Part shown: piece by piece, positions 5,518 to 48,508 of the stretch
How positions within the stretch are numbered: position 1 is the first letter of the stretch
How the letters are laid out: the number at the start of each line of letters is the position of its first letter
Program-made: the position numbers and the translations under genes
Notes under the pieces: generated by a model
What the model was told of the DNA's origin: nothing
The model's database searches: none
Seen by the model: only the letters and a program-made list of their open reading frames with translations
From: a virus
IMG/VR virus record: IMGVR_UViG_3300034190_002630
DNA: 64,000 nt
Reading direction: 5' to 3' (one strand)

Positions 5518-6453
5518 ATGGATACGTTTCTGTGGGTTGAGAAGTATCGACCAAAAACTGTAAAAGATTGTATCTTACCTAAAAAACTAAAGGATACATT
5601 TCAAGAGTTTGTCAAAGACAAACATATTCCTAATTTAATTTTATCTGGTTCTGCTGGAACTGGCAAAACAACAATTGCAAAAGCAATGGTTGAACAGATT
5701 GGTTCTACTTGGATGATGATAAACGGATCAGAGGAATCTGGTATTGATGTTCTTAGAACTAAGATAAAAAACTTTGCATCAACTGTTTCATTAGAGGGTG
5801 GAAGAAAATATATCATATTAGATGAGGCAGATTATCTAAATCCACAATCAACACAACCTGCTCTTCGTGGTTTCATGGAAGAGTTTCACAAGAACTGTGG
5901 TTTTATTCTCACATGTAATTACAAAAATAGATTGATTGATCCTTTACAATCAAGATGTTCTAATATAGATTTTACAATTAGAAATGGTGAAAGAGTAAAA
6001 CTTGCAGATAAATTTTACAAAAGAGTTCTTGATATTCTGAAGGATGAAAAGATACAATTCAATCCACCTGCTGTTGCAGAATTAATCACTGCTCATTTTC
6101 CCGATTGGCGAAGAGTTTTAAATGAATTACAAAGATATTCTGCGTCTGGTCAAATAGATGCAGGTATATTAATTAATATTAGTAATGAAAACATAAAAGA
6201 ACTAATGAGTTTTGTTAAAAAGAAGGAGTTTACAAATGTTCGTAAGTGGATTGTTAATAATCTTGATAATGATGCCAATAGGATTTTTAGAACGATCTAT
6301 GATTCTCTCTATGATACTATCGACCACTCTACTATCCCACATGCGGTGGTAATACTTGGTGATTATCAGTACAAGTCTGCCTTTGTTGCAGATCAAGAAA
6401 TAAATCTTTTGGCATGTATGACTGAGTTGATGTCACAGGTAAAGTTCAAATGA
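5518..6453 (+). CDS. gp44: Clamp loader large subunit (T4 gp44)
   Basis: [31 protein letters not shown]. Confidence 0.97.
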   Translation: MDTFLWVEKYRPKTVKDCILPKKLKDTFQEFVKDKHIPNLILSGSAGTGKTTIAKAMVEQIGSTWMMINGSEESGIDVLRTKIKNFASTVSLEGGRKYIILDEADYLNPQSTQPALRGFMEEFHKNCGFILTCNYKNRLIDPLQSRCSNIDFTIRNGERVKLADKFYKRVLDILKDEKIQFNPPAVAELITAHFPDWRRVLNELQRYSASGQIDAGILINISNENIKELMSFVKKKEFTNVRKWIVNNLDNDANRIFRTIYDSLYDTIDHSTIPHAVVILGDYQYKSAFVADQEINLLACMTELMSQVKFK

Positions 6454-7073
6454 ACAAAGAATATGAATCAGTAGATAAGTTTGAAAAAACAATAGCAGAT
6501 TTTTTTGGTGCTCCATATGCAGTTGCCACGGATTGTTGCACGAATGCATTAGAACTTTCTATCAGAATTACAGACTATGCAAATATTAAAGTGCCTGTGC
6601 ATACTTACGTTTCAGTTCCTTACATGCTAATGAAAAATGGTTGGCAGTTTACATTCACTGATGAGAAGTGGAAAGGTTATCATTATCTAACTGATCAAGT
6701 TATAGACGCAGCTGTTTATTGGAAAAAAAACGGATACATACCTGGTACTTTAATGTGTCTTAGTTTTTTTAAACGTAAACATTTATCGACTGATAGAGGT
6801 GGAATAATTTTATTGGATGACAAAGATAAATATGAAGACTTAATCAGATTAGTTTATGATGGTAGAAATAGAAGTGATACACCATATAATAAACAAAAGT
6901 GTGGCATGGGTTATCATTATTACATGACATCTGATAAAGCAAATTTAGGATTACAAAATTTTGAGAAAGTGAAAGATAAAAAACCTATAGAGAAAAATTG
7001 GGATTGGTATACACCAGTTAATCAATACTCTACGGTATTTGGTAATGAAGACATTATTTTTAGTTCAGAGTAA
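6450..7073 (+). CDS. DegT/DnrJ/EryC1/StrS-family PLP aminotransferase (short form)
   Basis: FE..IA.FFGAPYAVA.D.CT.AL, VIDAA, SF...KHL...GG motifs; only 207 aa. Confidence 0.8.
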   Translation: MNKEYESVDKFEKTIADFFGAPYAVATDCCTNALELSIRITDYANIKVPVHTYVSVPYMLMKNGWQFTFTDEKWKGYHYLTDQVIDAAVYWKKNGYIPGTLMCLSFFKRKHLSTDRGGIILLDDKDKYEDLIRLVYDGRNRSDTPYNKQKCGMGYHYYMTSDKANLGLQNFEKVKDKKPIEKNWDWYTPVNQYSTVFGNEDIIFSSE

Positions 7074-8088
7074 TACTGGGTATGGTCATATCAATAGAGT
7101 AAAATCATTTTGTGATCATATCAATGAAAATTTAATTATTACAAAACCTGTTCTAGGTCACGACACTGAGTTTTTTGATAAGTGGCATAATGACTTGTTT
7201 GTAAAATATGTTGAGTATAACCCAGACGTGATTGTTACTGAGGGTTTTCCTTTTGGAAGATATGGTTGGCATTCACATTTCAATAAAAATTTAAGAAGAC
7301 ACAAAGGTATCATGGATATCTTAGATCATGCAAAAAACAAAAAGATATATTCTTTAGAGAGAGATATACCATGGATTAGACCAAGTGAAAATTGGTTTCA
7401 TAGTGACATACTAAATGAATATTATGACGGCATAATTTTTCATACTGATAATAATTTTATTGATCCAAAAGAATTTTTACATAATCAAATTATAGATGTT
7501 CCAATAATTAGTTCTTCATATGTCACTAAACCATTTCAATATAATACTCATAGAAATGGATATTTAGTTTCTGGTGGTGATTGGTATCCACATATAGAAA
7601 AATATTACAATGTGGCATTAGATGTAAGGAAAAGAATTGGTGGAGATTGGACATTTATCGTTGGTGATAAAACACCAAATAAATTATTAGATAGATTACA
7701 AAAAGAAAATGTAAATATTGTATCAAGACCAGACACAAATGGTTACAGAGTTTTACTTGCATCTCATGAATTATCGATAAGTCAATTTGGTGCGATGTCA
7801 TTTTTAGATATAAATATCACAAAAACACCTGCGATTATGATCCCAAATGACTTAACATCAAATGATGTATATGATAGTAATGGTGTAGTAATTGATAAAG
7901 AAGAAAATTATAGAGCAAAAAGATATGAACAACTCGGTGGTGGGAAAGTAATATCAATTGATGATGTCACAGTTGACTCTTTGACAGATTCAATTTATAA
8001 AGTTGTTCACTGTAAACCCACCACTTTTGATATGAATGGAGCGAAGTTTGTTAAAGAATTTTTCAACGGAACAAATACAGTCCATTAA
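7045..8088 (+). CDS. GT-B glycosyltransferase (GT28 C-terminal-like)
   Basis: N-terminal GYGHINR, EGFPFGR, LVSGG, ISQFG motifs. Confidence 0.7.
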   Translation: MKTLFLVQSNTGYGHINRVKSFCDHINENLIITKPVLGHDTEFFDKWHNDLFVKYVEYNPDVIVTEGFPFGRYGWHSHFNKNLRRHKGIMDILDHAKNKKIYSLERDIPWIRPSENWFHSDILNEYYDGIIFHTDNNFIDPKEFLHNQIIDVPIISSSYVTKPFQYNTHRNGYLVSGGDWYPHIEKYYNVALDVRKRIGGDWTFIVGDKTPNKLLDRLQKENVNIVSRPDTNGYRVLLASHELSISQFGAMSFLDINITKTPAIMIPNDLTSNDVYDSNGVVIDKEENYRAKRYEQLGGGKVISIDDVTVDSLTDSIYKVVHCKPTTFDMNGAKFVKEFFNGTNTVH

Positions 8089-9079
8089 AGAGTTTGGATC
8101 ACACATGGACGCAGCCATAAAAGGTGAATATCACTATCCACACACAATAGTTTTTGTACCTGGTATATCTTGCATGTACAAATGCACTTTTTGTGGTCGA
8201 AACTATGATGCAAAATTTGAAAAACAAGATAAACATTATGAAGTTTATAGAGATGTCATATATCAAAACAAAGGAAGAGGACAAATAAACATTGGTGGTG
8301 GTCTTGAACCCATGACAAGTCCATATTTGAATCAGATATGTAAAGACTTGCATGACGTTGGTATGAAATCAAGAATGATAACAAATGGATTTATGTTAAC
8401 ACAAAATTACATAAAAAAGAATCCTTATGTTGCAAATTTAGATACTTTGAGAATATCTTTATATGGAATTGATGAAGAGGAGTATAATTCAGTATCTAGA
8501 AATAAAAAAGGTTATCAGGTAGTTAAAAACAATTTAAAATTATTAGACAGAAAAGTAAAACTTAATTATGTTGTATTACCACAAAATGTTGAAAAGATAG
8601 CAAAAATTTTAGATTACATAGATGACATTGGTGGTATAGACGAATTAAGTTTAAGAGAAGATTTTTCATTTCAGTATGAAATAAATGATCGAAATAAGTT
8701 TCAAGATATTCTAAATGAATTTGATATATTAGCAAAACAACGTGGTGTCAAAGTTCATTATGGATATGCGATGTATGATTTACTAAGAGGAAGAAAAAGT
8801 AAATTAATTAAATGTGATTATTTACATTTAGATAAAAAACAATCACCACAAACTAAAATATATCTTGATCCAAACGGTGATTTGTATTATTATAGTGAGG
8901 CGGCATTTTTAGATCGAGAAGGTAGTGAACGTCACATTCTAGGTAATACATGGAGGTCATCAATTGATGATGCACTAAAAGGTATGAAAGAAATAGAACC
9001 ACGTAAAGATGATATAAAGTTCATGGATACTTTAACTCATCTCATAGAATATTATAAATGGAGTGTTCGTAATGTATGA
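8036..9079 (+). CDS. DesII-like radical SAM enzyme (dTDP-4-amino-4,6-dideoxyglucose ammonia-lyase family)
   Basis: PGISCMYKCTFCGR (CxxxCxxC), GGLEP, LRISLYG, LREDF, Y.EAAF pattern as recalled for DesII; start codon uncertain. Confidence 0.75.
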   Translation: MERSLLKNFSTEQIQSIKEFGSHMDAAIKGEYHYPHTIVFVPGISCMYKCTFCGRNYDAKFEKQDKHYEVYRDVIYQNKGRGQINIGGGLEPMTSPYLNQICKDLHDVGMKSRMITNGFMLTQNYIKKNPYVANLDTLRISLYGIDEEEYNSVSRNKKGYQVVKNNLKLLDRKVKLNYVVLPQNVEKIAKILDYIDDIGGIDELSLREDFSFQYEINDRNKFQDILNEFDILAKQRGVKVHYGYAMYDLLRGRKSKLIKCDYLHLDKKQSPQTKIYLDPNGDLYYYSEAAFLDREGSERHILGNTWRSSIDDALKGMKEIEPRKDDIKFMDTLTHLIEYYKWSVRNV

Positions 9080-9467: not shown

Positions 9468-9867
9468 TTTTAATAAAGACAATATGCTTGAAGTGACTCT
9501 TAAAGAACCTGATGATTTTTTAAAGGTTAGAGAGACACTATCTAGAATCGGTGTGGCTTCAAGAAAAGAAAAAAAATTATATCAGTCTTGTCATATTCTT
9601 CACAAACAAGGTAAGTATTACATTGTTCACTTCAAAGAACTATTTGCACTTGATGGTAAAGAAACAAACTTAACAGAGAATGATATAGGAAGAAGAAACA
9701 GAATTGCTAGTCTATTGAAAGATTGGGGTTTGATTAATATCAGTAGTGAAGTACAAAACATGTCACCACTTAGTCAAATCAAAATTATAAGTTTCAAAGA
9801 AAAGTCTGAATGGACTTTAGAAACAAAATATAATATTGGAAAGACTAAAGATGAGAACAGTATATGA
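9454..9867 (+). CDS. regA: Translational repressor RegA
   Basis: PDDFLKVRETLSRIG, LYQSCHILHKQG.YYIVHFKELF. Confidence 0.97.
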   Translation: MENVSFNKDNMLEVTLKEPDDFLKVRETLSRIGVASRKEKKLYQSCHILHKQGKYYIVHFKELFALDGKETNLTENDIGRRNRIASLLKDWGLINISSEVQNMSPLSQIKIISFKEKSEWTLETKYNIGKTKDENSI

Positions 9868-11032
9868 TGAATGGACAAGGTTACAAAAAGTAATCATTGG
9901 TCGATCATTTGATCTAAGTAATTTTAATATAGATTATAAAAATAAAATATTATTTAATTATGATAAGACAATATCAGAAAGACATCAACACTTTTCAAAT
10001 ATAGAATATGACGGTAATAGAACTACAACTGATAGTTTACTAGATTTAGTTGAGGGTAATTTATCAGGTTTAAAAAAAATACATGATGAAACTAATGAAG
10101 ACTTAGATGTATTAGCAGACATATGTAAACAGTTTGGTACGTTTGTTGTAAGACCAGATATATTATATCCAATAGAAACTGAGTGGCGTCATCCCATGCA
10201 AGTTAGAGATACGATTGGTAAAATAGGTGATACAGTCTTTGAGGTTTACACTTCATCTTGGGATAGGATGTATGAAAATCTAAACTGTAGAAATATTTTG
10301 ATAGATGAATTTGAAGAGGGTGCTAGATATATTTCGATGCCATTTCCCATATATGAAAGAAAACCAACAAATACTATAGATGATATTGATATAAAAAATG
10401 AGATATCCAATAAAGAAATACAATCATATGATAATCAAGGACAAATATTAGGTGATACAGCTGCATTTATGAAATGTGGAAAACATATTTTTCATACTCA
10501 TTCAAATCCAAAAACAAAACTAAAAAAACAACATTCTCATATTAGTATGACTAATAATGGTAGAGAGTGGTGGAAGAGAGAGTTTCCAAGACATGAATTT
10601 GTGGAAATGAACGCATATGGTCACGTTGACGGAAAGATTTCTATTCTAAGACCAGGTTTAGTATTGGCATGGAATAAAGATCACATACCAGAGATTATGA
10701 AAGATTGGGATGTAATATTGATTGAAAATAAAGCAACATATTCTGGCAAACAAATAAAAGATTTATGTGAGGAAAGAGGTGTTAAAAATTATCCATGGCA
10801 CCATCTATTAGGTGTATCACAAGAAACAAGGTTTGATGCAAACTGTTTATCACTTGATGAAAATACAGTGATCACATCTGGTTATGATAAAGATTTATCA
10901 GATAAATTAAAAAAGTATAACATTGAAATGATACCTTGGGTTAATCGTTGGAACTTTCTTTGGTCTGGTGGTGCTCATTGTTGTTCTGTTGACTTGGCAA
11001 GAGAAGGAAAACTTATTGACTATTTTTCATAA
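9851..11032 (+). CDS. Amidinotransferase (glycine/inosamine amidinotransferase family)
   Basis: EW..L..VIIG N-terminus, RD, GHVDG.I..LRPGL, C-terminal GGAHC..VD..R with catalytic His and Cys. Confidence 0.85.
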   Translation: MRTVYDEWTRLQKVIIGRSFDLSNFNIDYKNKILFNYDKTISERHQHFSNIEYDGNRTTTDSLLDLVEGNLSGLKKIHDETNEDLDVLADICKQFGTFVVRPDILYPIETEWRHPMQVRDTIGKIGDTVFEVYTSSWDRMYENLNCRNILIDEFEEGARYISMPFPIYERKPTNTIDDIDIKNEISNKEIQSYDNQGQILGDTAAFMKCGKHIFHTHSNPKTKLKKQHSHISMTNNGREWWKREFPRHEFVEMNAYGHVDGKISILRPGLVLAWNKDHIPEIMKDWDVILIENKATYSGKQIKDLCEERGVKNYPWHHLLGVSQETRFDANCLSLDENTVITSGYDKDLSDKLKKYNIEMIPWVNRWNFLWSGGAHCCSVDLAREGKLIDYFS

Positions 11033-11044
11033 TTATGGTATAAT
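11016..11044 (+). promoter_or_regulatory. Sigma70-type promoter for DNA polymerase (probably leaderless transcript)
   Basis: TTGACT-17 bp-TATAAT with extended TG; ATG begins 7 nt after the -10 box; no SD. Confidence 0.8.
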
Positions 11045-11050
11045 ATCCAC

Positions 11051-13525
11051 ATGAGGTTTTATACAAACATTTCTCAATGGGGAAATAATTTATTATTACG
11101 TGAAGTCATAGATGGTAAGAGAGTAAATCGAAAAGTAAAATATTCGCCAACTCTGTATTGTCCTGTGATGCGTGAGACAAATTTTAAAACTTTAGAAGGT
11201 AAGTATGTTACGCCTATAAAACATCAAACAATGAGAGATGCCAAAGAGTGGGTTGAACAATATAAAGAACAACCACATTTATTATATGGTAATACGCAAT
11301 ATCAATATTCTTTTTTATATGAAAACTATCCAAACTTAGAATGGTCATTAGATGATGTATTGATCGCAACGATTGATATTGAAGTTGCTTGTGAAAATGG
11401 TTTTCCTAATCCACAAGATGCTATTGAACCTTTACTTTCTATCACTGTAAAAAATCATGCTAATAAACAAATATTTGTTTGGGGTGTTGGTGAGTACAAA
11501 ACAACTCGACCAGACGTTGCTTATGTCAATTGTGAAAATGAAAAAGAACTTATCTATGAGTTTTTAAAGTTCTGGCAAATGAACCAACCTGATGTTATCA
11601 CTGGTTGGAATACAGAATTTTTTGACATACCATATCTTTGTAATAGAATAAAAAAACTTTGTGGTGAAGATGACTTAAAAAAATTATCACCATGGAAATC
11701 TGTTTCATCAAAAAACATTTACTCAATGGGTCGAAGTCACCAAGTTTGGGATATACAAGGTATCGCTGCTTTAGATTATTATGATTTGTATCGAAAGTTT
11801 ACATATACAAATCAAGAGTCATATCGTTTAGATCATATCGCATACGTAGAACTAGGTGAAAGAAAAGACGGAAATCCTTATGATACTTTTAGAGATTGGT
11901 ACACAAATGATTTTCAATCTTTCATTGACTATAATATAACAGATGTTGAGATTGTTGATAAACTTGAAGAGAAAATGAAACTTATCGACTTGTGTTTGAC
12001 AATGGCCTACGAGGCAAAGGTTAATTATACAGATGTTTTAGGATCAGTTAAGTATTGGGATATTTTAATACACAACTATTTAATGGATAAAGGTATTGTT
12101 GTTCCACAAAAAGTAGAAAGAGAAAAGTCTGAGAAGTATGAAGGTGCATATGTAAAAGATCCACAGACAGGTATGCATGAATGGGTATTGTCTTTTGATT
12201 TAAATTCACTATATCCACATTTAATTATGCAATATAATATTTCACCTGAAACAATGAAAAGTGAACAGACAGTTCCTAATATGTCGGTTGATAAACTATT
12301 AGATAAACAAATAGACACATCTGTTTTAAAAAACACAACTATGACACCAAATGGTGCTTTATTTCGCACTGACAAAAAAGGATTCTTGCCTGAGATGATG
12401 CAAAAAATGTATGATGATAGAGTTAGATATAAAAAGGCAATGTTAGAGGCAAAACAAAATCTTGTTAACACAAAAGATAAAAAGTATGAAAAACAAATTT
12501 CTACGTTTAATAATATACAAATGGCAAAAAAGATTGCACTTAACTCAGCATATGGTGCTATTGGAAACAATTGGTTTAGATATTATTCACACACAATGGC
12601 AGAAGCGATTACTACATCTGGTCAATTATCTATTCGTTGGATTGAAAAAAAGATAAACAGTTATATGAATGGATTACTAAAAACTAAAGATAAAGATTAT
12701 GTTATTGCATCTGACACTGACTCTGTTTATATTACATTTGATGAACTAATTAAAAAACTTAATCCAAAATATCCTATTGACTTCCTTGATACAATTGCAA
12801 AAGAAAAGGTTGAACCTTTCATTGATCAATCATATCAAGAACTTGCAAACTATCTACATGCATATGAACAAAAGATGCAAATGAAAAGAGAAGTGATTGC
12901 AGATAAAGGTATTTGGACTGCAAAGAAAAGATATATTTTAAACGCATACGATATTGAAGGTGTTAGATATAAAGAACCAACATTGAAGATTATGGGTATC
13001 GAAGCAGTGAAGTCATCAACACCTGCACCATGTCGTGAAAAAATTAAAGAGGCTTTGAAGATTATGATGTCTGGTGATGAAAAAGAACTAAATAAATTTA
13101 TACAAAATTTTCGTGAAGAGTTTCTTACACTTCCACCAGAAGACATTGCATATCCAAGAAGTGTAAATGGTTTGAACAAATGGTCTGAGACACATACATT
13201 ATTTAAGAAAGGTGCTCCGATACATGTCAAAGGTGGAATATTATATAATCATTTAGTAAAGAAAAATAAACTTACAAGATACTATCCTTTAATACAAGAA
13301 GGTGATAAGATAAAGTTTTTATATTTAAAACTTCCTAACATTTATCAATCATCATCTATATCATTTATTACAACACTTCCAAAACAACTTGACTTTAAAG
13401 TTGATTGTGAATTACAGTTTGAAAAGTCATTTATTGAACCACTTAATTTTATTATTGAAAAGATTGGATGGTTTGTTGATAGAACTTATGGAACACAAGG
13501 AACACTAGAAGATTTTTTTGCATGA
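11051..13525 (+). CDS. gp43: Family B DNA polymerase (T4 gp43)
   Basis: DIE exonuclease motif, SFDLNSLYP, K..LNSAYG, SDTDS. Confidence 0.98.
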   Translation: MRFYTNISQWGNNLLLREVIDGKRVNRKVKYSPTLYCPVMRETNFKTLEGKYVTPIKHQTMRDAKEWVEQYKEQPHLLYGNTQYQYSFLYENYPNLEWSLDDVLIATIDIEVACENGFPNPQDAIEPLLSITVKNHANKQIFVWGVGEYKTTRPDVAYVNCENEKELIYEFLKFWQMNQPDVITGWNTEFFDIPYLCNRIKKLCGEDDLKKLSPWKSVSSKNIYSMGRSHQVWDIQGIAALDYYDLYRKFTYTNQESYRLDHIAYVELGERKDGNPYDTFRDWYTNDFQSFIDYNITDVEIVDKLEEKMKLIDLCLTMAYEAKVNYTDVLGSVKYWDILIHNYLMDKGIVVPQKVEREKSEKYEGAYVKDPQTGMHEWVLSFDLNSLYPHLIMQYNISPETMKSEQTVPNMSVDKLLDKQIDTSVLKNTTMTPNGALFRTDKKGFLPEMMQKMYDDRVRYKKAMLEAKQNLVNTKDKKYEKQISTFNNIQMAKKIALNSAYGAIGNNWFRYYSHTMAEAITTSGQLSIRWIEKKINSYMNGLLKTKDKDYVIASDTDSVYITFDELIKKLNPKYPIDFLDTIAKEKVEPFIDQSYQELANYLHAYEQKMQMKREVIADKGIWTAKKRYILNAYDIEGVRYKEPTLKIMGIEAVKSSTPAPCREKIKEALKIMMSGDEKELNKFIQNFREEFLTLPPEDIAYPRSVNGLNKWSETHTLFKKGAPIHVKGGILYNHLVKKNKLTRYYPLIQEGDKIKFLYLKLPNIYQSSSISFITTLPKQLDFKVDCELQFEKSFIEPLNFIIEKIGWFVDRTYGTQGTLEDFFA

Positions 13526-14343
13526 TACACAAATTACTAGAAACAATAATAACAAAGGAGTCACAAAATGAAACTGAAGTTGCTATTCTCTTATCTGGCG
13601 GCGTTGACAGTAACACTTGCTTATTTACTTCTAACCGTCTCGGTTTAAAAGTACATGGATATTCTTTTTATATAAAAGATAATCCTACTTACGACTCACT
13701 AAAAGCACAAGAGGTATGTGAGAAGTTTGGATTTAATTTTACAAGTATTGAGGTGCCGACTGAAAATTTAGTCGAGGACTTTAAAACGTTGGCACACAAA
13801 TATAGTTGTAAAAAGAAAGTTCAGTTTGAATGCACTTGGCCATTCATGTACATGTATCCTAAGATAAAAGAGAAAGTTATTATATCTGGTGTTGCCGCAG
13901 ACGGACATTATGGTCTAAGTAAAAAAGCAATGATACACTTCAAACACACAAAACAAAAGTTTGATAAGTTTAGAACAGATTATTTTTCATCTGATAATCC
14001 AGCAGGTGTCAGACAACTTGAAATGTTAAGTAAAGAATATGATAAAATACTGATTGCACCCTATTTGAATAAAGATGTATTTAATTATTTTATACAGTTT
14101 GATTGGGATCAGATTAATAAACCATATGAAAAACATTTAATCAGACAACATTTTCATGAGTTTGATGAACTTAAACTTAAAAAACATCTTAATTTACAAC
14201 TTGTGGCAGAAATACCAACTATATTTGAGAATCTTCTTGACAATAAAGAGATAAACATATATGATAGGAAAAGAATTATGGATGTGTGTCGTGACTGGTC
14301 AAAAATAGTTGACAGTAAAGGCACTTTGGAAAACTTTATATGA
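13522..14343 (+). CDS. Asparagine-synthase C-terminal-like ATP-dependent amide ligase (no glutaminase domain)
   Basis: PP-loop LLSGGVDS, SG..AD.HYG, PYL, EK..IR motifs; overlapping gp43 and the MTase gene. Confidence 0.75.
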   Translation: MIHKLLETIITKESQNETEVAILLSGGVDSNTCLFTSNRLGLKVHGYSFYIKDNPTYDSLKAQEVCEKFGFNFTSIEVPTENLVEDFKTLAHKYSCKKKVQFECTWPFMYMYPKIKEKVIISGVAADGHYGLSKKAMIHFKHTKQKFDKFRTDYFSSDNPAGVRQLEMLSKEYDKILIAPYLNKDVFNYFIQFDWDQINKPYEKHLIRQHFHEFDELKLKKHLNLQLVAEIPTIFENLLDNKEINIYDRKRIMDVCRDWSKIVDSKGTLENFI

Positions 14344-15476
14344 AATACAAACCCTACTTAATGAAAGACGTATTAGACGGAGAGGCACAAGAAAAGTTTC
14401 GTGTTATATCTACTTTCGCAGGTGGTGGTGGAAGTTCTACAGGTTATCGTCTTGCAGGTGGAAAAATACTTGCAATAAATGAGTTTGTTGAAGAAGCAAG
14501 AAATACTTACAGAGATAATTATCCAAACACACCTATTCTTGATGGTGATATCAAAGAACTAGAGGGAAAAGATTTTTTAGAGATTGCAAATATAAAAGAA
14601 GGTGAACTTGAATTATTAGACGGATCGCCTCCATGTTCAGCATTTAGTATGTGTGGAACATTGGCAAGAGAAGGAACAGTTCATAGTGACGGATTTGGTA
14701 AAACTAAATCTTACTCAGACGGAAAGATAGTTACGAATATTGAAGACTTATTCTTTGAATTTTTAAGAGTCGCAGATAAGATTAGACCAAAGACTATCAT
14801 CGCAGAGAATGTTGAAGGTCTTACAGTTGGAGAAGCAAAACAATATTTTAATAAAATACAAAATACATTTGAGGATATTGGATATCAAGTAGTTGCAAAA
14901 GTACATGATTGTTCACAGTTTGGAGTTCCACAAAGAAGACGAAGAGTTTTCTTTATGGCAGTTAGAGATGACATTATGGATCAAGTTGGTTTGAATTTTA
15001 TGACTCTATCATCAATATTTCCAAAAGAAAATAAAACAATTACTACTTTACAAGGTGCATTTGATGATTTAGATTATGATCAAGATGAAGTTGAAATGCT
15101 TACTACAAAATGGAAAGAGACAGCATACTATAAACAAACATGCGTATTAATGCCAAGAAACCCAGATAAAGTAATTACAGGAACAGACTATCATCCAAAA
15201 GGATGGCATTTTAATTTAAAGATTGCATCTGAGTTTCAACCTTCACCAACAATTACAGCAATGGGTGCTACAGAAAAAACTGCTGGAGTGTGTCATTGGG
15301 AAGAAGACAGAAAATTTACTTTAGGTGAATTAAAAAGAGTGACATCATTACCTGATGATTTTAAGTTAACAGGAAAATGGGCACAAAGAGCAGAACGATG
15401 TGGACGTATGGTGCCATCATTAATGATGAAAGCACTTGCAGAATCCATGTACAATAATGTATTAAGGAATATATAA
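14340..15476 (+). CDS. C5-cytosine DNA methyltransferase homolog, probable carboxymethyltransferase
   Basis: FAGGGG (motif I), GSPPC (IV), ENV (VI), PQRRRR (VIII); motif X reads GRMV rather than GNxV. Confidence 0.85.
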   Translation: MKYKPYLMKDVLDGEAQEKFRVISTFAGGGGSSTGYRLAGGKILAINEFVEEARNTYRDNYPNTPILDGDIKELEGKDFLEIANIKEGELELLDGSPPCSAFSMCGTLAREGTVHSDGFGKTKSYSDGKIVTNIEDLFFEFLRVADKIRPKTIIAENVEGLTVGEAKQYFNKIQNTFEDIGYQVVAKVHDCSQFGVPQRRRRVFFMAVRDDIMDQVGLNFMTLSSIFPKENKTITTLQGAFDDLDYDQDEVEMLTTKWKETAYYKQTCVLMPRNPDKVITGTDYHPKGWHFNLKIASEFQPSPTITAMGATEKTAGVCHWEEDRKFTLGELKRVTSLPDDFKLTGKWAQRAERCGRMVPSLMMKALAESMYNNVLRNI

Positions 15477-16183
15477 TGAACGATTTTACTTTTGCACATA
15501 GAGAAGAAGGATTTGACAATCATATTGATCAATCTATTCGAGGTTATAGAGATTTACTCAACGATGTAGTTTCTTTTTCAAGATACTTCGTTGAAGAACA
15601 CACCACAGTCTTAGACATAGGTTGTTCTACAGGAAAACTAACAAAACGAATTATGCAAGAAAATGTAAAACACAAACCATTTGTTTGTTATGAGGGTGTT
15701 GAGTATGCTGAAGGATTTAAGGAAGACTTAGATAAAAGACTAAGAGAATTAAATTCGATGTTTCCCGATATGGATAATTTAGTTAGTTTTCTACAAAAAG
15801 ACATTAGAGAATACAGATGGCGACCAGAAGTTAACTCTTTTGTTACATCAATTTTTACTTTACAATTTATGCCAAAAAAAGACAGAGCAGATTTGTTAAG
15901 AGAAATATATCATAGTTTAATACCTGGTGGTGCATTTGTATTTTCTGAAAAAGTCTTTTCTGAGAATGCACATATTCAAGACATGATGACTTTCATGTAC
16001 TATGATCACAAAAGAGAACACTTTGATGACAAAGATATTCTTGATAAAGAAAAGACACTAAGACACATGTTGAAACCTAACACATGGCCAGAATTGAAAG
16101 ATCATTTAGAAAAAGCAGGTTTCATAGACGTACAAGTGTTTTGGCGTAATCACAATTTTATAGGAGCAATAGCAATAAAATGA
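15476..16183 (+). CDS. cmoA: CmoA-like carboxy-S-adenosylmethionine synthase
   Basis: [30 protein letters not shown]...NF motifs typical of CmoA. Confidence 0.8.
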
Positions 16184-17208
16184 CAAACGATTTTCTTAAA
16201 GATATAATTAAAACAACTGGCAATGAATATGCTAATCTAGTGGAAGACGGAGTTGAATCAGGTGATGTTGAAAACTTTATCGACACAGGTTCTTATATTT
16301 TAAATGGAATGTTAAGTGGTTCACTCTATGGTGGACTTCCACAGAATAAAATAACAGCACTTGCAGGTGAATCTGCAACAGGTAAAACATTTTTTCTTAT
16401 GGGAATGTGTAAACACTTTTTAGATGCAAACCCAGATGGTGGTATTGTTTACTTTGAGTCAGAATCAGCAGTAACTAAAAAAATGATCGTTGATAGAGGT
16501 ATTGATGCATCAAGAATGGTAGTCTTACCTGTTTCAACTGTACAAGAGTTTAGAACACAGGCAATAAAAGTTCTTGATAGATACATGCAACAAGACGTTG
16601 ATATTAGAAGACCAATGTTTATGTGTCTTGATTCTCTAGGTATGTTATCTACAACTAAAGAAGTTGAAGATACAGCAGAGGGAAAAGAAACAAGAGATAT
16701 GACAAGAGCTCAAGTTCTAAAGGCTGCATTTAGAATACTTACACTTAAATTAGGAAAAGCAAAAGTTCCTATGGTCGTCACTAATCATACTTATGATGTT
16801 GTTGGATCATATATTCCAATGAAAGAAATGGGTGGTGGTAGTGGACTTAAATATGCCGCAAGTAGTATTGTTTATCTAAGTAAGAAAAAAGAAAAAGACG
16901 GAACTGAAGTTATTGGTAATATTATCAAAGCAAAAAATCAAAAGTCTAGACTAACAAAAGAAAACTCAGATTGTGAAGTTAGATTAACATACAATAAAGG
17001 ACTTGACAAATATTATGGATTACTTCAACTTGCTGAAAAATATGATATATTTAAAAAAGTATCTACGAAGTTTGAATTACCAGATGGTCGAAAAGTATTT
17101 GGTAAAACTATAAATGATGATCCACAGTCATACTTCACAGATGAAGTTATGGAAAAACTAGAAGAAGCGGCAATGAAAGAATACTCATATGGAGGCAACA
17201 ATGAGTGA
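16180..17208 (+). CDS. uvsX: UvsX RecA-like recombinase
   Basis: [37 protein letters not shown]. Confidence 0.95.
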
Positions 17209-47303: not shown

Positions 47304-47741
47304 ATGAGAACGTTATTTATACTGTTTTTTTGTGTTTCTGTGTCGGCCAGCGAACTAGTACATGATTTTAATAATCCTAGTTTTTCTGGTCAAGGATACT
47401 CATCTCATGTTCTATCAATAGAACAATTACAGTTTACGAGAAAAGAACAGATAAAAGATGATATTGAAGCGGCAGAACGTGATGCCAAACGAGAAGAAGA
47501 AAACGAAACAGTAAATCGTTTTCTTGCAAACTTAGAATCACGTATCTATGCGAATTTATCAAAACAATTAGTTGATAATATGTTCGCTGAAGATGGCGCT
47601 AATACAGGAACAGCAGAGATTGAAGGAGCAGAAATCTATTGGGAAAAGGATACCGACTTAGGAACTATTATGATTAGAGTGACTGAAGAAGATGGTACCG
47701 TGACAACTGTAACAGTTCCAATTGGTGATTTTGGGTTTTAA
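47304..47741 (+). CDS. csgF: Curli assembly protein CsgF
   Basis: Signal peptide, ELV..F.NPSF.G, F...LESRIY..LS. Confidence 0.85.
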   Translation: MRTLFILFFCVSVSASELVHDFNNPSFSGQGYSSHVLSIEQLQFTRKEQIKDDIEAAERDAKREEENETVNRFLANLESRIYANLSKQLVDNMFAEDGANTGTAEIEGAEIYWEKDTDLGTIMIRVTEEDGTVTTVTVPIGDFGF

Positions 47742-48508
47742 TGATTAAATGGTTACTTGTATTCTTTCTCTTAACAGGTTGTGTAACAGGACCTAAGACA
47801 TTTGATTATGAACCACCAAAGGTTTCACAATCAGTTTTAGATTTACAGGCAGTACCACAATTAGACGGACCGCCGATCACAGTTGCAGTTTATACTTTCT
47901 TTGATAAAACAGGTCAAAGAAAACCAAGTGAAAAGTTTAGTCAACTAAGTACCGCAGTGACACAAGGTGCTGAAGTTTGGGTAATACAAACACTTCAAGA
48001 GGTTGGTAATGGTACTTGGTTTAAAGTTGTTGAAAGAAGTGGTTTAGATAATTTAATTAAAGAACGACAATTGATTCGTTCAACACGTGAACAATATGAA
48101 GAAGGCGATAAACAATTAAAACCATTGTTATTTGCTGGATTGATTATTGAGGGTGGAATTATTGGATATGATTCCAATATAGTAAGTGGAGGAGCAGGTG
48201 CTCGATATTTGGGTATTGGTGCCACTCAACAATATAAAGTTGATAATGTTACTGTGTCAATGAGGGTAGTTAGTGTTTCAACTGGTGAAGTATTACTAAC
48301 AGTTGCGACAGAAAAAACTATTGCATCTCATGCTACAAGTGCCGATGTATTTCGATTTGTAGATATGGGAACTACTGCTGTCGAAGTGGAAACAGGTGTT
48401 GCAACGAATGAACCTGTTAACTATGCAGTGAGAGCTGCTATAGAACAAGGTATTATGGAATTAATAGGACAAGGAGTAGATAAGGAAGTTTGGAAATATA
48501 AGGAGTAA
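47741..48508 (+). CDS. csgG: Curli secretion channel lipoprotein CsgG
   Basis: Lipobox LTGC, VAVY.F.DKTGQRK, STAVTQG, WF.VVER.GL.NL.KERQ.IR, EGGIIGYD, NEP. Confidence 0.93.
   Translation: MIKWLLVFFLLTGCVTGPKTFDYEPPKVSQSVLDLQAVPQLDGPPITVAVYTFFDKTGQRKPSEKFSQLSTAVTQGAEVWVIQTLQEVGNGTWFKVVERSGLDNLIKERQLIRSTREQYEEGDKQLKPLLFAGLIIEGGIIGYDSNIVSGGAGARYLGIGATQQYKVDNVTVSMRVVSVSTGEVLLTVATEKTIASHATSADVFRFVDMGTTAVEVETGVATNEPVNYAVRAAIEQGIMELIGQGVDKEVWKYKE

Follow-up and report, generated by a model that had tools for sequence, protein, structure and literature searches.

A chain of overlapping genes between gp43 and uvsX

Within the 64,000-nucleotide stretch of viral DNA analyzed here (IMG/VR record IMGVR_UViG_3300034190_002630; hereafter the window), open reading frame (ORF) calls and family scans reveal an unbroken chain of overlapping genes on the plus strand, arranged as gp43-cmoY-cmoX-cmoA-uvsX. 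The chain begins with gp43 (11051-13525), which codes for a family B DNA polymerase of 824 residues (PF00136/PF03104, phrog_262) and whose stop codon overlaps the start of cmoY (13522-14343). The cmoY gene codes for a 273-residue homologue of ATP-dependent, adenosine monophosphate (AMP)-forming amide ligases, which is of the asparagine-synthetase C-domain type and lacks a glutaminase domain. This gene is followed by cmoX (14340-15476), coding for a 378-residue homologue of DNA cytosine C5-carboxymethyltransferases (PF00145, with a match to PDB 8YF3), and by cmoA (15476-16183), coding for a 235-residue homologue of carboxy-S-adenosylmethionine (carboxy-SAM or Cx-SAM) synthase (TIGR00740, with a match to the enzyme SpCmoA described below). 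Last is the uvsX recombinase gene (16180-17208, 342 residues; PF00154, phrog_97), whose start overlaps the stop of cmoA. A first-pass annotation of this DNA had described three coupled genes directly after gp43, and the stop/start overlaps are indeed read at every junction: ATGA between gp43 and cmoY (13522-13525), ATGA between cmoY and cmoX (14340-14343), TAATG between cmoX and cmoA (15474-15478), and ATGA between cmoA and uvsX (16180-16183). The G+C content is even over the gene block, at 31-34%.

A natural system composed of the same enzyme families, CmoA/CmoX/CmoY, is known from Synechococcus phage S-B43 (Yang et al., Nat Commun 2025, PMC12783734), and the report from such a phage that the first-pass annotation mentioned is therefore real. 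SpCmoA of S-B43 converts S-adenosylmethionine (SAM) and prephenate to carboxy-SAM with a kcat of 2.33 per s, and wild-type SpCmoX accepts only carboxy-SAM, not SAM, to produce 5-carboxymethylcytosine (5cxmC) at GC sites in duplex DNA. Residue Arg350 of SpCmoX touches the carboxymethyl group of the cofactor, and the R350N mutant is inactive. SpCmoY, an asparagine-synthetase homologue without a glutaminase domain, carries out ATP-driven ligation of glycine to the 5cxmC carboxylate both in vitro and in vivo, and the virion DNA of S-B43 contains the glycine amide while free 5cxmC is absent (PMC12783734). Our literature search on CmoX, modified bases and carboxy-SAM found no second report of a natural system, and CmoX is named in no further paper of the library searched.

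Comparison with the S-B43 genes (taken from MN018232) makes it very likely that the three window genes encode a CmoY-CmoX-CmoA pathway for DNA hypermodification. The homology, motifs, gene coupling and conservation come from our analysis, and all three activities are known for the S-B43 orthologues; from these orthologues we infer the activities, the GC target, the identity of the amine and a protective role in the window phage. The first-pass annotation had predicted 5cxmC formation followed by amidation, and this prediction is supported by the demonstration of the same pathway for S-B43 together with the clear homology of all three window proteins.

The predicted transferase, carboxy-SAM synthase and ligase

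CmoX belongs to the C5-cytosine methyltransferase family (PF00145, E 2e-51), and its best solved relative by far is PDB 8YF3, which is SpCmoX with Cx-SAM (E 4.7e-140). The window protein is 58-59% identical to SpCmoX over its full length. The catalytic motif SPPC (S96-P97-P98-C99) is encoded at 14625-14636 and the ENV motif (E156-N157-V158) at 14805-14813, the QxRxR motif is intact (Q198/R200/R202), and the active-site Glu and Arg residues that contact cytosine N4 and O2 are conserved (E156 and R200/R202, respectively). Motif X reads G355-R356-M357-V358, in which Arg356 is specified by the CGT codon at 15405-15407. The first-pass annotation had noted the intact PC and ENV motifs and had placed this Arg at the position usually held by the motif X Asn; all these features are read in the sequence, and alignment places Arg356 on the Cx-SAM-binding residue Arg350 of 8YF3. 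The variant M.MpeI N374K, as cited in PMC12783734, likewise replaces the motif X Asn by a basic residue, which lets a C5 methyltransferase use Cx-SAM. So far as that citation goes, M.MpeI N374K differs in being engineered, in preferring CG rather than GC targets, and in having no partner CmoA and no ligase.

The presence of Arg at motif X tracks a neighboring ligase or cmoA gene in our sample, which is small and partly redundant, and this agrees with the large survey of IMG/VR, UniProt and MGnify that returned 5,615 CmoX candidates (SPPC plus Arg350), 4,257 CmoA proteins and 2,251 ligases (PMC12783734). Specifically, G-R is found at motif X, along with SPPC and ENV, in all 25 IMG/VR loci fetched through the ligase whose transferase match reaches this motif, and these transferases share 39-98% identity with window CmoX. 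The S-B43 transferase likewise carries G-R. The count of 27 G-R loci beside CmoY or CmoA comprises the 25 IMG/VR loci, with one retrieved twice (L003 is the same as L026), plus S-B43; one further contig (L023) ends before motif X and stands outside the count. The transferase of Methylophilales phage Melnitz, which is encoded beside a TET/JBP dioxygenase, has G-L at this position. The covariation of Arg with a Cmo neighbor, whose lack would have counted against the first-pass annotation, is thus observed in this sample.

The third protein had been called CmoA-like, and TIGR00740 is indeed its best family (E 1.4e-31, 110 bits). Among solved structures it is closest to E. coli CmoA (4GEK, E 4e-22) and H. 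influenzae YecO (1IM8), and it aligns over its full length with biochemically active SpCmoA at 55% identity (E 1e-90). The bacterial CmoA/CmoB pathway for uridine 5-oxyacetic acid (cmo5U) in tRNA shares with the window system the homology of CmoA (4GEK) and the donor Cx-SAM. In contrast, the window has a DNA C5 transferase in place of CmoB as the acceptor enzyme.

For CmoY, the first-pass annotation had proposed an asparagine-synthase-like ligase without a glutaminase domain, and the profile matches bear this out. The Pfam profile Asn_synthase (E 3.8e-12) is matched at positions 3-131 only, corresponding to the first 129 residues of the protein, and the NCBIfam asparagine synthase profile TIGR01536 is matched only at positions 238-365 of 517, which lie past the glutaminase domain. 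The PP-loop SGGVDS occupies residues 25-30 (encoded at 13594-13611). A sequence search of solved structures with CmoY gave a single match that was spurious and of low complexity, and a fold search was used instead. The AlphaFold model, which was built on nine natural homologues and has a mean predicted local distance difference test score (pLDDT) of 81 and a predicted template modeling score (pTM) of 0.82, superposes over its full length on the synthetase domains of beta-lactam synthetase (1MC1, the top match with TMq 0.76), carbapenam synthetase, human ASNS and E. coli AsnB (the structures matched being 1MC1, 1Q19, 6GQ3 and 1CT9). All four relatives are AMP-forming, carboxylate-activating enzymes, and the CmoY model adopts the fold of AMP-forming amide synthetase domains.

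Full-length pairwise alignment of CmoY with SpCmoY gives 46% identity at E 3e-87, a value well inside the network threshold of 1e-56 used in PMC12783734, and CmoY thereby falls in the SpCmoY cluster. A tblastn search of our phage collection with CmoY matched SpCmoY at E 3e-73. All 26 of the columns that are invariant over seven CmoY homologues, whose identity ranges down to 29% and which include SpCmoY and a Dickeya jumbo-phage protein, are retained in the window protein, and the family-invariant basic residues K99, R151, K204 and H222 are all present. Omitted from this alignment was a frameshifted homologue that lies in two overlapping frames at 5989-6845 of another IMG/VR contig (L031), where either a frameshift or an assembly error is responsible. 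The homologue in the Dickeya jumbo phage AD1 (MH460463, 3156-5855) is 36% identical and follows genes for a small methyltransferase and a DUF1611 protein. A strict search (E 1e-40 or better) found no CmoX match in phage AD1, and Erwinia jumbo phages carry the same ligase.

Taken as a whole, the window and S-B43 systems are alike in their three enzyme families (CmoA 55%, CmoY 46% and CmoX 58-59% identity), in the SPPC motif and Cx-SAM-binding Arg, in a ligase without a glutaminase domain, in that no CmoB was found, in having overlapping genes, and in being carried by T4-like marine myophages. They differ in gene order, which is A-Y-X in S-B43 and Y-X-A in the window, and in location, since the S-B43 cassette follows primase-helicase and pyrophosphatase genes whereas the window cassette is flanked by, and coupled to, gp43 and uvsX. 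S-B43 is a cyanophage, whereas the carrier of the window cassette is of the csgG-bearing pelagimyophage/Melnitz type. An amidinotransferase gene also adjoins the cassette in the window, but not in S-B43.

If the window proteins act as their S-B43 orthologues do, CmoA would convert SAM and host prephenate to carboxy-SAM, and CmoX would flip out cytosines of duplex phage DNA after replication. Cys99 of CmoX would then attack C6 and the carboxymethyl group would be transferred to C5, while Arg356 holds the carboxylate of the cofactor, yielding 5cxmC probably at GpC sites. The ligase would subsequently amidate this base, with glycine being the amine in the characterized S-B43 system. Because the cassette would be read together with gp43 and uvsX, new phage DNA could be marked at once, and the mark would most likely shield the DNA from sequence-reading nucleases.

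Carrier phage and exchange of cassette genes

The window gp43 is closest to that of Melnitz (63-65% identity), compared with approximately 54% for cyanophages (54% for S-B43) and 52% for Pelagibacter phage HTVC008M. A csgG curli-pore gene is present at 47741-48508 on the plus strand (PF03783, E 4e-56), and its product shares 61% identity with the HTVC008M protein and 58% with the Melnitz protein; csgG is absent from S-B43 and from Synechococcus phage S-CRM01. In phages, csgG is described as rare and as characteristic of pelagimyophages and Melnitz (PMC9004378; PMC7029224). The gp43 relationships and csgG together place the carrier in the pelagimyophage/Melnitz group and, judged from these genes, it is a T4-like marine myophage of this csgG-bearing group and not a cyanophage. 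It probably infects a streamlined marine heterotroph.

Among the cultured phages in our collection, the S-B43 group alone has the complete three-gene set. CmoX without a CmoY match is seen in S-CRM01 (where CmoA adjoins it) and in RN05-S, and none of the Pelagibacter phages in the collection carries any cassette gene. S-CRM01, for which the comparison rests on its annotation, resembles the window in that cmoA neighbors the gene for an Arg-type transferase (58% identical) within the replication module, but the search with CmoY gave no ligase match there and the pair is located between gp62 and regA. In IMG/VR, approximately 30 contigs retain the order regA-amidinotransferase-gp43-cmoY-cmoX-cmoA-uvsX, with CmoY identities of 80-99%, which is the co-occurrence that the first-pass annotation had proposed to check across phage genomes. 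The three genes travel together across lineages. Novelty had been sought in the host group and in the amine. The carrier is indeed not a cyanophage; however, IMG/VR has already been surveyed, with thousands of cassettes recorded (PMC12783734), and near-identical copies of the window cassette are present in that database. The mechanism is thus already known from the homologous system, and the window copy is a further member in a different phage group. It extends a hypermodification proven in one cyanophage to curli-pore myophages related to HTVC008M and Melnitz, which infect very abundant, streamlined marine heterotrophs, and it leaves the known picture of the Cmo pathway unchanged.

The cargo of the gp43-uvsX interval differs among related phages, and this interval is a swap site for different cytosine-modification genes. 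In HTVC008M it holds a 374-residue protein of no known function. On the T4 map, genes 42 and beta-gt are found in the same interval. In Melnitz (MZ577097, 4010-8386), the slot contains genes for a C5 methyltransferase with Leu at motif X, a TET/JBP dioxygenase, a 427-residue protein, a P-loop kinase-like protein and MazG, and this is probably a hypermodification cassette based on oxidation of 5-methylcytosine (5mC). The Melnitz genome paper treats the methylase alone, as a restriction shield. The C5 transferases of Melnitz and the window (38% identity) thus occupy the same position and would each start a cytosine modification route. In contrast to the window, Melnitz has no CmoA and no CmoY, and the TET-type oxygenase and P-loop kinase-like partners imply 5mC oxidation rather than carboxymethylation.

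Exchange is also evident among the closest relatives of the window. The nearest contig (IMGVR_UViG_3300030117_004086, designated G001 or L026) is 98-100% identical in DNA outside approximately 15000-16200, a segment that covers the 3' third of cmoX plus cmoA and in which DNA identity is 64-92% and CmoA protein identity is 73%. Between cmoA and uvsX, this contig further contains 266 additional bases with a small ORF. Conversely, contig L018 carries a window-type cmoA (96%) within a more distant backbone, and of the cassette genes cmoA is exchanged most freely. Two sister contigs, L042 (12052-12864) and L044 (12166-12972), carry a CmoY that is 46% identical to that of the window and 49% identical to SpCmoY, together with a CmoX that is 91% identical. 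Among sister contigs, cmoA and cmoY are therefore exchanged for diverged alleles while cmoX stays 91-98% identical, a pattern that may point to selection acting on the supply of the donor and on the group that is attached.

Competing explanations and neighboring genes

Several observations weigh against the assignment of the window genes to the pathway known from S-B43. First, the 110-bit score of CmoA lies under the TIGR00740 equivalog cut-off of 193.3 bits. Second, Glu192 of CmoA occupies the position of E. coli Arg199, and Arg196 is found where E. coli has Glu203. Third, the target-recognition regions of CmoX (residues 216-320) and SpCmoX share only 39% identity, compared with 66-69% for the catalytic core. 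Fourth, CmoY shares just 46% identity with the glycine ligase, and over such a distance the choice of amine can shift; sister contigs carry the second CmoY type noted above. Finally, restriction systems are reported to be rare in SAR11 (PMC7029224), and if the host belongs to SAR11 this rarity would make the selective benefit of the mark less evident.

The first two of these points count little because SpCmoA has both features. The proven enzyme also scores below the TIGR00740 cut-off (115.6 bits), and so this cut-off is a description of bacterial CmoA that leaves room for the phage clade. The residue swap lies within the sequence KEKTLR (CmoA residues 189-196, encoded at 16039-16062), and the KEKxLR arrangement is common to active SpCmoA and all close phage alleles. 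On these alignments, the sub-cut-off score and the Glu/Arg arrangement appear to be traits of the phage CmoA clade, not defects. A defective CmoA was rejected on the same grounds, namely that active SpCmoA shares the Glu at the Arg199 position and the sub-threshold score. A distant phage CmoA (L032) keeps the E. coli-like order of basic and acidic residues (KK...E).

The third point bears on the target. GC (GpC) specificity is likely in this phage, but it is not assured because the target-recognition region has diverged. GpC dinucleotides are not avoided in the window (observed/expected 0.93) and, if GpC is the target, 14.6% of the window cytosines would carry the mark. As separate observations on composition, CpG is depleted over the whole window (observed/expected 0.59), CGCG is absent from the 64 kb, and the tetranucleotides TGCA and GATC occur 370 and 179 times, respectively.

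The leading alternative concerns the amine. The first-pass annotation had suggested ammonia or an amine; an amine fits, and is glycine in the characterized system, whereas ammonia is less likely because window CmoY groups with SpCmoY and not with the glutaminase-bearing, ammonia-type group. It is conceivable, though unlikely, that the first two steps proceed as in S-B43 and that the ligase of this lineage adds an amine other than glycine, such as another amino acid or an amine produced or modified by the amidinotransferase encoded upstream, to give an undescribed cytosine amide. The modest identity to SpCmoY would permit such a change. Moreover, CmoY occurs as four roughly equidistant types (46-51% identity), two of which alternate in one lineage while CmoX remains constant at 91%. 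On the other hand, the window protein retains every column that is invariant in its homologues, including SpCmoY.

The same alternative draws on the gene that precedes gp43. Located between regA and gp43 at 9836-11032 on the plus strand, this gene codes for a 398-residue protein that is a real member of the amidinotransferase family: the closest solved relative is HsvA, a polyamine amidinotransferase (5WPI, E 1e-13), with StrB1, AGAT and SxtG coming next, and no Pfam match was obtained at E 0.01. It lies directly upstream in every contig of the lineage that reaches that far, as a hypervariable allele of 56-99% identity (56-64% in some sisters). Yet this linkage is seen in one lineage only and may be inherited gene order, and a glycine amide offers an amidinotransferase no free amine as a substrate. 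In the cultured phages, homologues are confined to the Campylobacter CP220 group and are distant (23% identity). A functional link between the amidinotransferase and CmoY was rejected as a supported claim, since the two do not travel together outside the one lineage: neither S-B43 nor five other CmoY-bearing records in IMG/VR have the amidinotransferase. The more specific proposal that the alternating CmoY types attach different amines, and that the amidinotransferase supplies or finishes the amine to yield a guanidino-bearing or other undescribed cytosine amide, appears to us improbable.

A further possibility is that the main benefit is metabolic, with CmoA draining host SAM as a counter-defense, similar to phage SAM lyases, and the DNA mark arising as a side effect. 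This question was raised as open by the authors of the S-B43 study (PMC12783734), and the free exchange of cmoA is in keeping with it. It leaves the conserved Arg-type transferase and the ligase unexplained, however. We regard it as very unlikely to be the main benefit, although it is not exclusive of the CmoY-CmoX-CmoA pathway.

Least credible of all is an ordinary 5mC methylase whose CmoA and ligase neighbors serve, for example, host tRNA modification or small-molecule synthesis, a reading in line with the Pfam and NCBIfam names ('C5 DNA methylase', 'tRNA methyltransferase' and 'asparagine synthase') but at odds with the replacement of the motif X Asn by Arg356, with the exclusive use of Cx-SAM by wild-type SpCmoX, with the joint travel of the three genes across lineages, and with the search for CmoB. 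Specifically, no CmoB (PF08003) was found among the 29 window ORFs scanned with Pfam, nor in the nearest contig G001, S-B43 or Melnitz. The first-pass annotation had stated that no CmoB is present; this holds for the scanned ORFs, while absence from the whole phage is unproven because the window is only part of the genome.

With regard to expression of the CmoY-CmoX-CmoA cassette, a consensus scan identified a single strong promoter-like site, located directly before gp43 on the plus strand (11016-11044; TTGACT-17-TATAAT with a TG extension, 11 of 12 matches). This site is a possible start for a gp43-cmoY-cmoX-cmoA-uvsX transcript, bearing in mind that promoter-like sites over the region are no more common than in shuffled sequences. 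The scan found no terminator-like site at any cassette gene boundary, and its consensus hits overall occur at chance frequency. Internal promoters and terminators in the cassette were rejected because the counts are at chance level.

Farther upstream, between the clamp-loader genes gp44 and gp62, the plus strand carries a separate group of genes (6450-9079) coding for a 207-residue fragment of a DegT-type aminotransferase, a GT28-like glycosyltransferase and a radical SAM protein, which may constitute a sugar-tailoring set.

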